From Patescibacteria group bacterium (GTDB taxonomy: Bacteria > Patescibacteriota > Patescibacteriia > CAIXNZ01): 64,000 nucleotides of DNA. A model generated the notes under the pieces. The model was not told where the DNA came from and did no database searches. It worked only from the letters and a program-made list of their open reading frames with translations. The stretch lies in assembly GCA_028714455.1 (NCBI GenBank), contig JAQTMG010000004.1, positions 5,425 through 69,424 of the forward strand, given 5' to 3'. Every line of letters begins with the position of its first letter. The stretch's first letter is position 1. The position numbers and the translations under genes were made by a program. Positions 36,310 to 42,164 of this stretch are shown here, in pieces.

Positions 36310-36365
36310 TTGACAAACACAATATCTAGTATAAAATTAATATTAGGATACACTAAATATTGTGT
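36310..36365 (+). promoter_or_regulatory. Two NrdR boxes overlapping a TTGACA promoter element, upstream of nrdR-nrdD-nrdG
   Basis: ACACAATATCTAGTAT at 36317-36332 and the palindromic ACACTAAATATTGTGT at 36350-36365. Their starts are 33 bp apart. TTGACA lies at 36310-36315. Confidence 0.5.
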
Positions 36366-36416
36366 CTTTAATTTTAGAGCAAAGTCATTTGCTAAGTTGT
36401 TTTGCTCCCTAAAAAT

Positions 36417-36890
36417 ATGAAGTGTCCAGTTTGCAGTTACAAGGAAACAAAGGTCATTGATTCCAGAATAGCCCTAGACGGCATAACCGTTCGGCGCAGA
36501 CGCGAATGTCTAAAATGCGGTTTTCGCTTTAGCACGTACGAGGAGGTCGAGCTCCTTGATTTGATGGTTTTGAAGCGCGATGGTTCGAAACAGGCTTATT
36601 CTAGAGAAAAACTCGAACAAGGATTGAGAAAATCATTAGAAAGAAGGCCTATCTCTGAAGAGCAGTTTCGCCTGCTGGTCAACAAAATCGAAAGAGACAT
36701 CCAGGCCCTGAAGAAAAGCGAAATTTCCAGCAAAGAGATTGGCGAGATTGTCATGAAAGAACTTAAAAAAAAGGATCCAGTCGCTTATATAAGATTTGCC
36801 TCCGTTTATCGCGCCTTTCAGGATCTGGAGAGCTTTCAAAAAGAAATTAATGCCGTTTTTAAAAGTAAAAAGAAGAGAGATAAGAACTAA
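36417..36890 (+). CDS. nrdR: Transcriptional repressor NrdR
   Basis: An N-terminal zinc ribbon (MKCPVCSYKETKVIDSR...CLKCGFRF) is followed by an ATP-cone. The true start is probably the ATG at 36417 (MKCP); the listed ORF starts at an upstream TTG. Confidence 0.9.
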   Translation: MKCPVCSYKETKVIDSRIALDGITVRRRRECLKCGFRFSTYEEVELLDLMVLKRDGSKQAYSREKLEQGLRKSLERRPISEEQFRLLVNKIERDIQALKKSEISSKEIGEIVMKELKKKDPVAYIRFASVYRAFQDLESFQKEINAVFKSKKKRDKN

Positions 36891-37001: not shown

Positions 37002-39056
37002 ATGGGTAAGATTTCTAAGCTTAAAAAAAGAGATGATCGCATCGTAGACTTTGATTTGAGTAAGGTTGAATTGGCGATTTACAAGGCCATGGAGGGAGTG
37101 GGAGATCCGAACAAGAAGAAGGCCAAAAAAATCGCTCTTGATGTTGAGAAAGAACTGAATAAGAAATTCCACGAGAGAAGTATTCCGGCCGTAGAAGAAG
37201 TCCAAGATCTTGTTGAGGTTGCTTTGATAAAAAATAAGCAGATAAAAACGGCCAAGGCCTATATCTTATACCGCGATCAGCACGCCCAGATTAGAAATCT
37301 GAAAGCCATGATCGATTCTGATTCTTTGATCGAAGGCTACCTGTTTCAGAGCGACTGGCGAGTCAAGGAAAATAGCAACATGGCCTATTCGTTGCAGGGC
37401 TTAAATAACCACGTGGCTTCGGCCGTCTCCTCTCATTACTGGCTGCACAAGGTGTACCCGCAGGAAGTGCGTGATGCCCATTTGAATGCCGATATTCATA
37501 TACATGATTTGCAGACGCTGGCTTCTTATTGTTGCGGCTGGGATTTGCGTGATTTATTGATGAGAGGCTTTGGCGGCGTTGAGGGCAAAGTAAGCTCAAA
37601 ACCACCGAAGCATTTTAGAACCGCCCTGGGCCAGATGGTGAACTTTTTTTACACTGTGCAGGGAGAAATAGCCGGCGCCGTGGCTTTCTCAAATTTTGAC
37701 ACTTATTTGGCTCCCTTTATCGCTTATGACAATCTAACATACGATGACGTGAAGCAATGCATTCAGGAATTTATTTTTAACATGAACGTGCCGACTCGCG
37801 TAGGCTTTCAGACGCCGTTTACCAATCTTACCCTTGATTTAAAAGTGCCTGACATGATGAAGGAGGAGCCTGTCATTATCGGTGGTAAATTTCAGGAAAA
37901 GACTTATAAGGATTTTCAGAAAGAAATGGATTTGCTCAATAACGCTTTTACCGAAGTCATGATCGCCGGCGATGCTCACGGTCGCGTCTTTACCTTTCCC
38001 ATCCCGACTTATAATATTACCAAGGATTTTGACTGGCAAAACGAGGTAGTTGATAAGATTATGGAGATGACCGCCAAATACGGTATTCCTTATTTTTCAA
38101 ATTTTGTTAACAGCGACATGAAGCCCGAAGACGCGCGCAGCATGTGCTGCCGCCTTCGCCTGGATAATCGCGAGTTAAGGAAAAAGGGCGGCGGTCTTTT
38201 CGCTGCCAACCCGCTGACCGGTTCAATCGGCGTAGTGACTATTAATCTCGCTCGCATCGGCCACTTGGCGAAGAATAAAGAAGAATACAAAGAACGCCTA
38301 GAGAGGATGATGATTATTTCGAAAACCAGCCTGGAACAAAAACGCAAGATAGTAGAAAAATTTACCGAGGAGGGTCTTTATCCTTACTCCCGTTATTACT
38401 TGCAGGATATCAAAAATAAATACGGTGAATATTGGAAGAACCATTTTAATACCATCGGCATCAACGGTATGAATGAAGCAGCCCAAAATCTTCTTGGCAA
38501 AGACATCACTACGCCAGAGGGTCGAGAATTTGCGCTCGAGATACTGAATTTTATGAGGGAAAAGATGATGGATTATCAATTAGAGACAAACAGCTTGTTC
38601 AATCTGGAAGCCACGCCAGCCGAAGGCACCTCTTATCGCTTTGCCAAGGCTGATAAAGAGAGATTCCCTGATATTATTTGCGCCAATGAGCAGGCTTATC
38701 GAGAAAAAGGCGCGGAACCATACTATACTAACTCATCCCAACTGCCGGTTAGCTTTACTGATGATATGTTTGAGGCTCTTGATTTGCAAGATGATCTGCA
38801 GACGCGCTATACTGGAGGTACAGTCTTCCACGGTTTTGTCGGCGAGAAGATGCCCTCGATTGAGGCGACGAAAAGCTTAGTTAAAAAAATCGCCGAGAGA
38901 TATCATCTGCCTTACTTTACCATCACGCCGACATTCAGCATATGTCCCGTTCACGGCTATATAGCGGGAGAACATTTTTTCTGTCCTAAATGCGATCAGG
39001 AGATCGGTTATATCGAGGCGGAACCGGAAAAGAAGCTAGAATTTGCCAATAATTAA
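37002..39056 (+). CDS. nrdD: Anaerobic ribonucleoside-triphosphate reductase NrdD (class III), truncated before the glycyl-radical domain
   Basis: An N-terminal ATP-cone and the class III RNR core are present. The C-terminus has a zinc site (CPVHG...CPKC) but ends without the RVxGY glycyl-radical loop. Confidence 0.85.
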   Translation: MGKISKLKKRDDRIVDFDLSKVELAIYKAMEGVGDPNKKKAKKIALDVEKELNKKFHERSIPAVEEVQDLVEVALIKNKQIKTAKAYILYRDQHAQIRNLKAMIDSDSLIEGYLFQSDWRVKENSNMAYSLQGLNNHVASAVSSHYWLHKVYPQEVRDAHLNADIHIHDLQTLASYCCGWDLRDLLMRGFGGVEGKVSSKPPKHFRTALGQMVNFFYTVQGEIAGAVAFSNFDTYLAPFIAYDNLTYDDVKQCIQEFIFNMNVPTRVGFQTPFTNLTLDLKVPDMMKEEPVIIGGKFQEKTYKDFQKEMDLLNNAFTEVMIAGDAHGRVFTFPIPTYNITKDFDWQNEVVDKIMEMTAKYGIPYFSNFVNSDMKPEDARSMCCRLRLDNRELRKKGGGLFAANPLTGSIGVVTINLARIGHLAKNKEEYKERLERMMIISKTSLEQKRKIVEKFTEEGLYPYSRYYLQDIKNKYGEYWKNHFNTIGINGMNEAAQNLLGKDITTPEGREFALEILNFMREKMMDYQLETNSLFNLEATPAEGTSYRFAKADKERFPDIICANEQAYREKGAEPYYTNSSQLPVSFTDDMFEALDLQDDLQTRYTGGTVFHGFVGEKMPSIEATKSLVKKIAERYHLPYFTITPTFSICPVHGYIAGEHFFCPKCDQEIGYIEAEPEKKLEFANN

Positions 39057-39100
39057 TCAATTTTATATCTATCTGCCCGCGGCAGGTAGCCAGGAGGAGT

Positions 39101-39241
39101 ATGAATACCAAGATGACAAGAACTCCATGCGAAGTGTATTCCAGAGTTGTGGGATACATCCGTCCGGTCAATCAGTGGAACAAGGGCAAGCGCGCTGAAT
39201 TCACGGATCGTAAGGAGTTTAACAAACAACTCGAGCAGTAG
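39101..39241 (+). CDS. Stand-alone 46-aa glycyl-radical domain of class III ribonucleotide reductase (NrdD C-terminal peptide)
   Basis: Translation MNTKMTRTPCEVYSRVVGYIRPVNQWNKGKRAEFTDRKEF. The RVVGY glycyl-radical motif and the WNKGK..E..DR signature are present. It has its own Shine-Dalgarno AGGAGGA 5 nt upstream. It is in a different frame from nrdD, after a 44-nt spacer containing a GC hairpin. Confidence 0.6.
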   Translation: MNTKMTRTPCEVYSRVVGYIRPVNQWNKGKRAEFTDRKEFNKQLEQ

Positions 39242-39332
39242 TTCTTTCAATCTTCAAGTTCTTTAAGTTATGCCCCGTTCTGGTTCTTGCTCCGGGGCTT
39301 TTTTCGTTATAAGATGTTCATACCAGGATTTA

Positions 39333-40049
39333 ATGATTAAAAGGATGATTAAAATAGCGGGTTTACAAAAGATGACGCTCATCGATTATCCAGGCAAAGT
39401 GGCTGCCATTGTTTTTTTGGCTGGCTGTAATTTTCGTTGCGGTTATTGTCACAATTCTGAACTAGTCCAACCTGATGGCGAAAAGGATTTTTTTTCAGAA
39501 CAAGATTTTTTTAATTTTTTGAAAAAGAGAAAAGGGCTCTTAGACGGCGTTTGCATCACAGGCGGTGAGCCGCTTTGTCACGAAGAAAAAGAGCTGGCCG
39601 AATTTTTTAAAAAAATTAAGGGATTGGGTTTTTTGATTAAGCTGGATACGAATGGCTACAATTTTTTGACGCTCAAGAATCTGGTCGCCAAAAAGGGCCT
39701 CATTGATTATATCGCCATGGACGTGAAAGTTCCGCTCGACAAATATGGCGAACTGACAAGCCTGGACGGCGACTTTGAAAATATACAAAAAAGCATCGAT
39801 TTGATTATGAAGAGCGACGTTGATTATGAATTTAGAACAACGATTTTGCCGAAGTTTCATAGCGGCTTTGAATTTGAAAAACTACTTTGCCTGATAAAAG
39901 AGGCGAAGATATTATATCTGCAGAATTTTAGAAATAGAAAAACTCTTGATGAAAAATATGGGAAGGAGCTCGCTTTTAAAAGCGGTGATTTAGAGCGCAT
40001 GAAGGAGCTGGCCCTTAAATTCGTTAAAAAATGTGAGATTAGAAATTAG
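39333..40049 (+). CDS. nrdG: Anaerobic ribonucleotide reductase activating protein NrdG (radical SAM)
   Basis: The radical SAM cluster motif CNFRCGYCHN is present. The likely start is the ATG at 39333 (MIKRMIKIAG), preceded by AGGA. The listed ORF starts at 39270 and would include a terminator-like hairpin. Confidence 0.8.
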   Translation: MIKRMIKIAGLQKMTLIDYPGKVAAIVFLAGCNFRCGYCHNSELVQPDGEKDFFSEQDFFNFLKKRKGLLDGVCITGGEPLCHEEKELAEFFKKIKGLGFLIKLDTNGYNFLTLKNLVAKKGLIDYIAMDVKVPLDKYGELTSLDGDFENIQKSIDLIMKSDVDYEFRTTILPKFHSGFEFEKLLCLIKEAKILYLQNFRNRKTLDEKYGKELAFKSGDLERMKELALKFVKKCEIRN

Positions 40050-41065: not shown

Positions 41066-42164
41066 ATGAAAGAAGCTGAATTAATAAATAAACTCAAGGA
41101 GTTAAACATCAAGATCTCCGAGGCCTGGGAGTTTCTTTGACATTGGCAAAAAGATTGATGAAGTCAAAAAATTAGATAAAGAAATAGCCGAAAAAGATTT
41201 TTGGTCAGACACAAAAAAAGCCAAAGCCATTAGTCAAAAAACTAGTGACCTAAAAAGCGAGATAGATATTTGGCAGAAATTGAAAAAAGAAATTGATGAT
41301 TTATCTGATTTAGCTAGAACAGATCAAGAAGATAAATCGGTGAATTTGCGTGAAGAGGTTGAAAAAGAATATGAGAAATTAAAAAAAGAATTTAAAAAGT
41401 TAGAATTTCAATTATTGTTCGGTGAAAAAAATGATGTCAATAACGCCATTTTGGCTGTTCACGCGGGTACGGGCGGCGTTGACGCTATGGATTGGACTCA
41501 GATGCTTTTGCGCATGTATCTGCGCTACTGCGAGCGAAAAGGATTTAAAACAAAAATAGTTGATGAAACTTTTGGTTCAGAAGCAGGCGTCAAAAGCGCC
41601 GTGGTCGAGATCTCCGGCAAATACGCCTATGGCAATTTAAAATCCGAAAACGGCGTGCATCGACTGGTGCGCATTTCACCATTTGACGCGGAAGCCATGA
41701 GGCACACATCTTTCGCTCTCGTTGAGGTAATTCCGGAGATTGCCGAGGACGCGGAAATAGAAATTAAACCAGAAGATTTAAAAATTGATACTTTTCGCGC
41801 TTCGGGTCATGGCGGTCAAAATATTCAAAAAACAGAATCAGCCGTGCGCATTACCCATTTGCCCACAAAAATTACTGTCGTTTGTCAGAGTGAGCGTTCA
41901 CAAGCACAAAACAAAGAGCGCGCCTTAAAAATTTTAAAATCAAAGTTATTTCAACTATCGCAAGCCATAGCCGAGGCGGAAAAAAAACAACTGCGTGGTG
42001 AATATTCTGAAGCGGCCTGGGGCAACCAGATTCGCTCCTATGTTTTGCAGCCATATCATTTGGTTAAAGATCATAGAACTGAATATGAGGAGGGCGACGT
42101 AGATTCTGTGTTAGATGGTAAATTGGATGGGTTTGTAGGAGCATATTTGAAACTTAAACGCTAA
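41066..42164 (+). CDS. prfB: Peptide chain release factor 2 with a programmed +1 ribosomal frameshift (join 41066..41137, 41139..42164)
   Basis: ORF0 reads MKEAELINKLKELNIKISEAWEFL and ends at the canonical site GGGAG-TTT-CTT-TGA-C. The +1 frame continues DIGKKIDEV... through SPF (RISPFDAE) and GGQ (RASGHGGQNIQ). Confidence 0.9.
41126..41141 (+). promoter_or_regulatory. RF2 autoregulatory +1 frameshift site (internal Shine-Dalgarno-like GGGAG, then CUU UGA C)
   Basis: The sequence CTGGGAGTTTCTTTGAC matches the conserved prfB recoding cassette. Confidence 0.85.

Follow-up and report, generated by a model that had tools for sequence, protein, structure and literature searches.

We describe here the class III ribonucleotide reductase (RNR) encoded in a stretch of 64,000 nucleotides (nt) from a Patescibacteria group bacterium (GenBank assembly GCA_028714455.1, contig JAQTMG010000004.1, positions 5,425 to 69,424 of the forward strand); the whole stretch is referred to below as the window, and coordinates without a locus name are positions within it. 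On the plus strand, the gene order is ftsZ, nrdR, nrdD, a gap of 44 nt, an open reading frame (ORF) of 46 amino acids (aa), a terminator-like hairpin, nrdG and a short MGMT-type gene. The nrdD gene (37002-39056) encodes a protein of 684 aa with an ATP-cone, the catalytic barrel and a zinc ribbon (CPVH...CPKC). Its product ends in CPVHGYIAGEHFFCPKCDQEIGYIEAEPEKKLEFANN, followed by a TAA stop codon; the zinc ribbon leads into the conserved extension D-x-E-I-G-Y and then into a tail that varies, and there is no glycyl-radical loop. A first-pass annotation of the sequence had noted this termination just after the C-terminal zinc site, followed at a distance of 44 nt by a separate ORF of 46 aa with a good Shine-Dalgarno sequence, and both observations were borne out. 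The gap (39057-39100) contains an AU-rich run, a hairpin and the sequence AGGAGG (39092-39097), which lies 3 nt ahead of the ATG (39101) of the small ORF (39101-39241). The product of the latter, MNTKMTRTPCEVYSRVVGYIRPVNQWNKGKRAEFTDRKEFNKQLEQ, consists of the glycyl-radical loop (SRVVGY, with the radical glycine at Gly18), the WNKGK segment and the C-terminal tail of NrdD, so that the signatures RVxGY and WNKGK had also been placed correctly.

Profile searches assigned adjoining parts of one enzyme to the two products. The 684-aa protein matched Pfam NRDD over positions 1-529 of 562 (E = 1.5e-188, 628 bits, cut-off 26.2) and NF006126 over positions 3-652 of 684 (1062 bits, cut-off 548), and scored 541 bits against TIGR02487 (cut-off 326). 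The 46-aa product matched NRDD over positions 531-562 of 562 (E = 1.6e-10) and NF006126 over positions 649-683. Together, the two products tile the normal NrdD profile, with nothing missing and nothing duplicated. The canonical class III enzymes (phage T4, E. coli, T. maritima 4COI/4U3E and Prevotella copri 8P23) belong to the same family and have the same domain order and an adjacent NrdG, but carry the loop on the same chain as the barrel, whereas here the chain breaks between the equivalents of T. maritima residues 609 and 610. In the numbering of that enzyme the large ORF corresponds to residues 100-609 and the small ORF, as a separate product, to residues 610-645, which include the RIVGY loop. 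All of the solved or characterized NrdDs that were compared were single chains of 605-743 aa with the glycine loop on the same chain. Within the window there was no second copy of the loop. The Pfam model Gly_radical (PF01228), which represents the C-terminus of pyruvate formate-lyase (PFL), was absent from the matches of the small ORF at E ≤ 0.1, only NRDD/NrdD models being found, and neither Pfam nor NCBIfam has a model dedicated to the small protein.

The barrel scores above the curated thresholds for class III RNR, the zinc site and the conserved barrel residues are present, and nrdG lies nearby. The residues of the predicted zinc-binding site (C648, P649, H651, C661, P662 and C664) were invariant in 44 homologues, the SMCCRLR motif of the cysteine loop was invariant in the homologue alignment, and of the 176 columns with ≥95% conservation among fused NrdDs, the window protein keeps 173. 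A C-terminal RVxGY on the same chain as the barrel is missing from the 684-aa protein and is supplied only by the two proteins jointly. The first-pass annotation had regarded the small ORF as a detached radical domain. This holds for the glycine loop and the C-terminal tail, which are separate, but not for the zinc-ribbon half (CPVH...CPKC), which remains on the large protein. An AlphaFold2 model of the large subunit alone had a mean predicted local distance difference test score (pLDDT) of 75.5 and a predicted template-modelling score of 0.71, with low confidence at residues 117-131 (the NxN-flap region), 383-385 (the cysteine loop), 646-660 (the zinc ribbon) and 667-684 (the tail). These segments fit elements that the absent loop might order in the model, although we count this as no evidence.

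The same layout was found in close relatives from four independent sources, i.e., L003 (NCBI), L085 (ENA), L086 (JGI) and L087 (Logan). Among these relatives, peptide identity was 85-96%, with a nonsynonymous divergence (dN) of 0.05-0.115 and a synonymous divergence (dS) that was >1.3 or not computable. Where the ratio dN/dS could be computed it was ~0.02 for the small ORF, 0.04-0.055 for nrdD and 0.13-0.22 for nrdG, values that are rough because dS is saturated. Judged from these substitution patterns, the 46-aa ORF is under strong purifying selection. The first-pass annotation had allowed for a decaying gene, which the conservation and selection data refute for this locus.

A word-index search with the 46-aa protein returned 571 homologues, several of them on contigs of 0.2-3.7 Mb; the best 120 were all 41-78 aa in length. 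An exhaustive HMMER search of 1.84 billion (1.84e9) representative proteins yielded 5117 matches at E ≤ 0.001, of which 148 of the 150 best were 48-107 aa. The genomic contexts of six small proteins, one on a 3.7-Mb contig, all consisted of an nrdD lacking the glycine loop, the small ORF and nrdG. The motif R[VI]xGY was missing from all 120 closest homologues of the large subunit (68-100% identity; from Falkow-, Buchanan-, Uhr-, Kuenen- and Parcubacteria), and 119 of them had the C-terminus CxxC-D-x-E-x-G-x plus a variable tail. Comparison with NrdD orthologues had been proposed at the outset as the check on a split gene; once made, it revealed a conserved split and no sign that the region is an assembly artefact. 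As far as sequence comparison can establish, the split is conserved in hundreds of bacterial and archaeal genomes. The large subunit from the window is 100% identical to an NCBI protein from a metagenome-assembled genome (MAG) of Patescibacteria, and in the large public collection searched no called gene corresponds to the exact 46-aa product. Large proteins of this type are annotated at NCBI as ordinary ribonucleoside triphosphate reductases, and most of the small ones are nameless; the small gene seems to have been missed or left unnamed in most annotations.

To examine the phylogenetic spread of the split, a profile of the small proteins was run against a single genome from each species, and the 80 best loci were retained. 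Among these, ~25 were split at the linker and ~47 were fused, with ORFs of 700-780 aa or, where inteins are present, more; an extra small copy accompanied four of the fused loci, and three loci had an unlinked copy. Split forms occurred in Patescibacteria, Saccharibacteria, Dojkabacteria, Leptospirales (including a 3.7-Mb contig), Woese-, Micr- and Nanoarchaeota, three MAGs labelled Gammaproteobacteria, unclassified archaea and one member of the Thermoplasmatales. The junction could be resolved in 24 split loci. Their gaps ranged from -8 to +179 nt, and relative to nrdD the small gene was in frame 0 in 5 cases, in frame 1 in 10 and in frame 2 in 9; all three stop codons were used, and the chosen start of the small gene was always ATG (24/24). 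The next gene was nrdG in 23 of the 24, often overlapping the stop codon of the small ORF. Between CxxC and CEVYSRVVGY, nearly all fused enzymes had a linker of just 2-8 residues, whereas split large subunits had gained CxxC-D-x-E-[IL]-G-[YW], or in Leptospirales CPYDHxxEE..G[IV]E instead. The split barrels retained 95.6% of the 176 columns conserved in fused NrdDs, and no barrel columns discriminated the split from the fused forms.

In a neighbour-joining tree of 60 barrels, based on corrected p-distances with 100 bootstraps, the split forms were monophyletic in none of the bootstraps (0/100). A split clade of Leptospirales had a support of 100 and a nine-member split clade of Patescibacteria a support of 79, while a Thermoplasmatales clade in which one split form is nested among three fused ones was recovered in 100/100. 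In the split Thermoplasmatales locus, ~70 nt that its fused sisters lack are inserted after the zinc site and ahead of the glycine loop, and this insertion holds a tail (DEELGLTKKVKVVARR), a stop codon, AGGAGG and an ATG; the sequence of the peptide that follows is that of the local fused C-terminus. These sequence relationships indicate several independent origins, the same linker having been cut repeatedly and the cut form kept.

The expression signals at the locus suggest how the two chains might be produced. The gap hairpin has a 9-bp stem (39069-39077 / 39081-39089) with the loop CGC, and its core is the palindrome CTGCCCGCGGCAG (39073-39085), which had been recognized in the first pass. 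A common plan for the gap, i.e., TAA, an AU-rich run, a hairpin, GGAGG, 3-4 nt and ATG, is shared by the window and three relatives (L003, L085 and L087). Among these four sequences the hairpin holds its position rather than its sequence, with double compensatory changes in 3 of 9 consensus pairs, although single-sequence z-scores were weak (~-1.6). In the minimum-energy fold for the window, the segment just after the nrdD stop codon (39062-39068) forms a helix with 39099-39105, a stretch containing the AUG, and the outer pairings were broadly similar in the folds of some relatives. In the window and the same three relatives a strong Shine-Dalgarno sequence (GGAGG) was found only at the small ORF, while nrdR, nrdD and nrdG lacked one. 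The gap fold and the Shine-Dalgarno sequence suggest that translation of the small gene is coupled to that of nrdD, or efficient, or both.

The terminator-like hairpin downstream of the small ORF (GCCCCG...CGGGGC, 39272-39298) is followed by TTTTTT (to 39304) and then by nrdG, in agreement with the first-pass reading; a hairpin with a T-run occurs at this position in L003, L085 and L087 too, each of different sequence. The nrdG gene (39333-40049, with an alternative start ATG at 39345) encodes the radical-SAM activase of class III RNR (TIGR02495 NrdG2, E = 2.1e-58, 197 bits, cut-off 131), and also matched Pfam Radical_SAM and Fer4_12. At the other end of the cluster, nrdR (36417-36890) encodes a repressor of RNR genes with a zinc ribbon (Pfam Zn_ribbon_NrdR, E = 1.6e-19) and an ATP-cone (E = 3.2e-22); its start codon, ATG at 36417, falls within the listed ORF 36402-36890, and it is placed likewise in the gene order of L003, L004, L085 and L087. 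Upstream of nrdR, a promoter scan detected the promoter-like site TTGACA-16-TAAAAT (36310-36337; 11 of 12 matches), overlapped by a pair of plus-strand palindromes, ACACAATATCTAGTAT (36317-36332) and ACACTAAATATTGTGT (36350-36365), which resemble the consensus of the NrdR box. The region 36310-36365 is the probable start of a transcription unit containing nrdR, nrdD and the small ORF, and the palindromes suggest autoregulation of this operon. The three genes would then appear as one NrdR-controlled transcript that ends at the terminator.

We consider it probable that this locus encodes a functional class III RNR assembled from two separately translated chains, with the radical loop acting in trans. 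An alternative is that the two ORFs are recoded into one chain by frameshifting, read-through or bypass of the 44-nt gap, as in T4 gene 60, with the hairpin and the Shine-Dalgarno-like sequence as recoding signals. The window does offer some material for this, since the final sense codon of nrdD, AAT, recurs as the second codon of the small ORF, the gap contains a hairpin with GGAGG before the landing region, and the frame of the small ORF is open through the whole gap; in L004 and L078, moreover, the two ORFs are in frame with a stop codon alone between them. However, matching take-off and landing codons were found in just 6 of the 24 split loci, all of them AT-rich codons of the kind expected by chance, and no single mechanism can serve gaps that range from -8 to +179 nt and involve all three frames. 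Together with the invariable ATG start of the small gene, the closed small-ORF frame in the L003 gap and the lack of a slippery heptamer at the nrdD stop codon, this makes recoding very improbable. It is extremely improbable that the split is an artefact of assembly or sequencing, or that it marks a gene inactivated recently. It is true that the exact 46-aa product has gone unrecorded as a called gene, and that MAGs do contain frameshift errors: two of them have genuine breaks in nrdD (L074:1965-4171 and L008:867-2881). These, however, lie inside the barrel with no start codon after the break, in contrast to the conserved split at the linker. An artefact would also be hard to reconcile with the recurrence of the same architecture in independent NCBI, ENA, JGI and Logan assemblies, the strong purifying selection on the small ORF, the compensatory changes in the gap hairpin, the ending of all 120 closest homologues at the same point and the existence of hundreds of clusters of free-standing small proteins. 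The first-pass annotation had favoured an NrdD that is naturally in two pieces over a point error, and the retention of the split across independent assemblies and lineages, the purifying selection and the variety of gaps and frames all uphold that view.

A more serious rival is a split that is functional but neutral to selection, a stop codon, ribosome-binding site and start codon having arisen in a permissive surface linker, with the loop binding tightly and having no role in repair. In its favour, every break lies within the linker, short and variable, that separates the zinc ribbon from the glycine loop, many of the split lineages are reduced-genome symbionts subject to strong drift, and split and fused barrels are not separated by any column. 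We nevertheless regard it as rather unlikely, although it is compatible with a functional enzyme. The neighbour-joining tree points to recurrent, independent origins, the split has been retained across a very large clade of Patescibacteria, and that clade has the conserved C-D-x-E-x-G-Y extension, to which the nested Thermoplasmatales split has a counterpart in CDEELGL; in addition, the Shine-Dalgarno sequence of the small gene is uniquely strong, and pure neutrality would leave the extra-copy glycine-loop proteins of sister lineages, described below, unexplained. Several points weigh against the two-chain reading. A neutral, tolerated fission would leave the same signature in the sequence, the benefit of a spare part being our inference. 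The ranking of the 80 loci favours relatives of the small protein, so that 25 of 80 is no frequency; the tree was built by neighbour joining rather than by likelihood analysis; and saturation of dS makes the dN/dS values rough. About half of the split loci lack a recognizable Shine-Dalgarno sequence ahead of the small gene, although these lineages may not rely on one, and in L004 and L078, where the small ORF abuts the nrdD stop codon in frame, read-through is possible.

If the two-chain reading is correct, the ATP-cone, the zinc ribbon and the ten-stranded barrel, which bears the catalytic cysteine loop, would come from the 684-aa body, and the glycine loop that is normally C-terminal in NrdD from the 46-aa peptide. 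NrdG would take a hydrogen from Gly18, acting on the peptide in its free or its docked state, and the loop would sit in the barrel beside the SMCCRL cysteine loop, as the attached loop does in solved NrdDs, where it would serve as the radical store for nucleotide reduction. The activase of PFL accepts short peptides bearing the motif RVSGY. The glycyl-radical domain of the Prevotella copri NrdD, which comprises the zinc site, a buried loop and a surface tail, is highly mobile and vanishes from maps (PMC11226230). Free-standing NrdD-type loops alongside full-length NrdD, as found in related genomes, are consistent with action in trans without being a test of it. Taken with the mobility of the P. 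copri domain, the use of peptides by the related PFL activase makes this mode of action plausible.

A separate loop may also confer a benefit. Oxygen cleaves glycyl-radical proteins at the radical glycine; here, such cleavage would cost only the 46-aa peptide, which could be replaced without remaking the barrel; the peptide may also be synthesized in excess. By analogy with GrcA, and because of the uniquely strong ribosome-binding site and the true extra copies in related genomes, we put forward this benefit of a replaceable part as a tentative possibility. Equally tentative is a bolder version, in which the 46-aa peptide would be a diffusible, consumable cofactor, activated by NrdG off the enzyme, docked, and swapped after oxygen cleavage, so that class III RNR would become a two-component system of radical carrier and catalytic subunit, like class I. 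Since the peptide is the sole copy of the glycine loop here, it would be an obligate subunit rather than a spare.

The first-pass annotation had likened the small ORF to GrcA/YfiD, a comparison that is apt as a concept but not as membership of that family. Like the window peptide, GrcA/YfiD is a small, free-standing glycyl-radical loop able to fill a large barrel, with a possible relevance to oxygen damage (PMC8683613, PMC13450708). However, GrcA/YfiD is homologous to PFL and coexists with full-length PFL, whereas the window peptide is a homologue of NrdD rather than of PFL or GrcA, and is the only loop of its enzyme. Coexistence with a full-length enzyme bearing its own loop was found instead for a family of longer proteins in related genomes. 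Directly after a fused nrdD, four loci have an ORF of ~92 aa (L026:4140-4418, L028:4137-4415, L053:4153-4437 and L082:3857-4117) that encodes a four-cysteine zinc ribbon of its own (CHDCG...KCxxC) together with a glycine loop of the NrdD type. Clusters of this family number at least 120, with lengths of 86-135 aa; most come from Paceibacterota and Minisyncoccales, and the cultured Minisyncoccus archaeiphilus (WP_412732680.1) is among the sources. Unlinked proteins of ~135-146 aa, with uncertain starts, were encoded at L077:3707-4117, L029:3695-4135 and L022:3707-4114 with no nrdD nearby; they matched the C-terminal part of Pfam NRDD, from ~467-521 to 562, and their neighbours were rubrerythrin (L077), 2-oxoacid:ferredoxin oxidoreductase genes (L029) and mltC (L022). 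The MAG containing L077 also has a full-length NrdD, in L079, whose glycine loop is the one most similar to that of the unlinked protein. In 5 of 5 testable cases, the closest match to the extra-copy loop, sometimes in a tie, was the NrdD encoded in the same genome, with 87-100% identity compared with a median of 77-80%. When an AlphaFold2 model of the 92-aa protein (pLDDT 75) was compared with the PDB using Foldseek, nothing significant was found, the only matches being weak ones to zinc-ribbon ribosomal proteins. The extra-copy proteins that coexist with full-length NrdD (L026, L028, L053, L082 and L077/L079) look like GrcA-type spares for RNR, and they lend strength to the functional idea of the first-pass annotation.

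Division of an RNR between chains has parallels in the other classes. In class I, NrdA and NrdB provide only a functional analogy, in that the stable radical is on a different chain from the active site; NrdB is a ferritin-like metalloprotein without homology to the peptide and acts by long-distance radical transfer, whereas the 46-aa loop would be expected to lie beside the catalytic cysteine. The class Ia NrdA of Aeromonas phage Aeh1 is reportedly split by the homing endonuclease gene mobE into pieces that reassemble into an active enzyme (work by Friedrich and colleagues from 2007). In that case mobE lies between the halves and the cut is within the barrel, whereas here no gene was found in any gap. 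In class II, NrdJa and NrdJb of Pseudomonas aeruginosa are encoded by two adjacent genes with the C-terminal module on the second chain, as here, although that enzyme is adenosylcobalamin-dependent, unlike the one in the window (PMC9669993). Small chains on the barrel of a glycyl-radical enzyme are also known from BSS (beta/gamma), HPAD (gamma) and MASS (beta/gamma/delta), but these are Fe-S or rubredoxin-like and have no radical glycine, whereas the small chain here is the radical site (PMC13450708). A review from June 2026 lists small subunits only for these three enzymes, and spare parts as known only for formate lyases (PMC13450708). A full-text literature search revealed no description of a split NrdD, although most subscription journals were outside its coverage and a prior description is possible. 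The system is best read from its sequence as a naturally two-subunit class III RNR, a variant for which no description was found.

An intein, split-intein or homing-endonuclease origin for the split was considered and rejected, because the gaps of the 24 split loci hold no ORF. The tail and N-terminal extension amount to ≤40 aa in total, which is below the size of intein halves. Insertions of ~250-500 aa, probably inteins, were present in nrdD ORFs of 1000-1390 aa (L015, L024, L025, L027, L032, L033, L047, L063 and L076), at sites equivalent to window residues ~177, ~270, ~331, ~382 (inside SMC|CRL) and ~607; none was at the split (~665). The split-type large subunits L027 and L076 also bear one such insertion. 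A search for a phage origin or parallel gave just three weak matches in 50,697 phage records.

If the 46-aa peptide is indeed a diffusible, consumable cofactor, it would, together with the extra-copy proteins, represent the first spare-part system for a ribonucleotide reductase, one with repeated origins among Patescibacteria, DPANN archaea, Leptospirales and Thermoplasmatales. The detachable loop and the extra-copy proteins would extend the idea of spare-part repair from pyruvate formate-lyase to the synthesis of DNA precursors. The organisms in question, from the Candidate Phyla Radiation and the DPANN archaea, live at oxic-anoxic interfaces and have very small genomes. How the activase gains access to a radical glycine buried in the barrel is a long-standing question for glycyl-radical enzymes, and a separate 46-aa loop peptide would be a minimal, physiologically relevant substrate for NrdG, with which docking could be separated from activation. 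Annotation pipelines and RNR surveys that demand the glycine motif may misjudge genomes of the split type.

Some minor features of the sequences were also noted. A direct repeat on the plus strand, AGTTCTTTCA / AGTTCTTTAA, straddles the stop codon of the small ORF and extends beyond it (39240-39266), and its GTTCTTTAA pair is kept in the three closest relatives (L003, L085 and L087). The motif AGTTCTTTAA was not enriched in the window as a genome-wide site might be, with 14 matches compared with 9 expected. A few small glycine-loop proteins (P0121, P0123 and P0233) contain a short internal tandem duplication of EVYSRVVGY, and probably derive from misassembled short contigs. Farther downstream in the window, prfB (the listed ORF 41280-42164 plus the sequence upstream of it) has a programmed +1 frameshift site, CTT TGA C, at 41134-41140, preceded by GGGAG; the listed ORF, which begins at a TTG codon, is the downstream part only of this gene for release factor 2.

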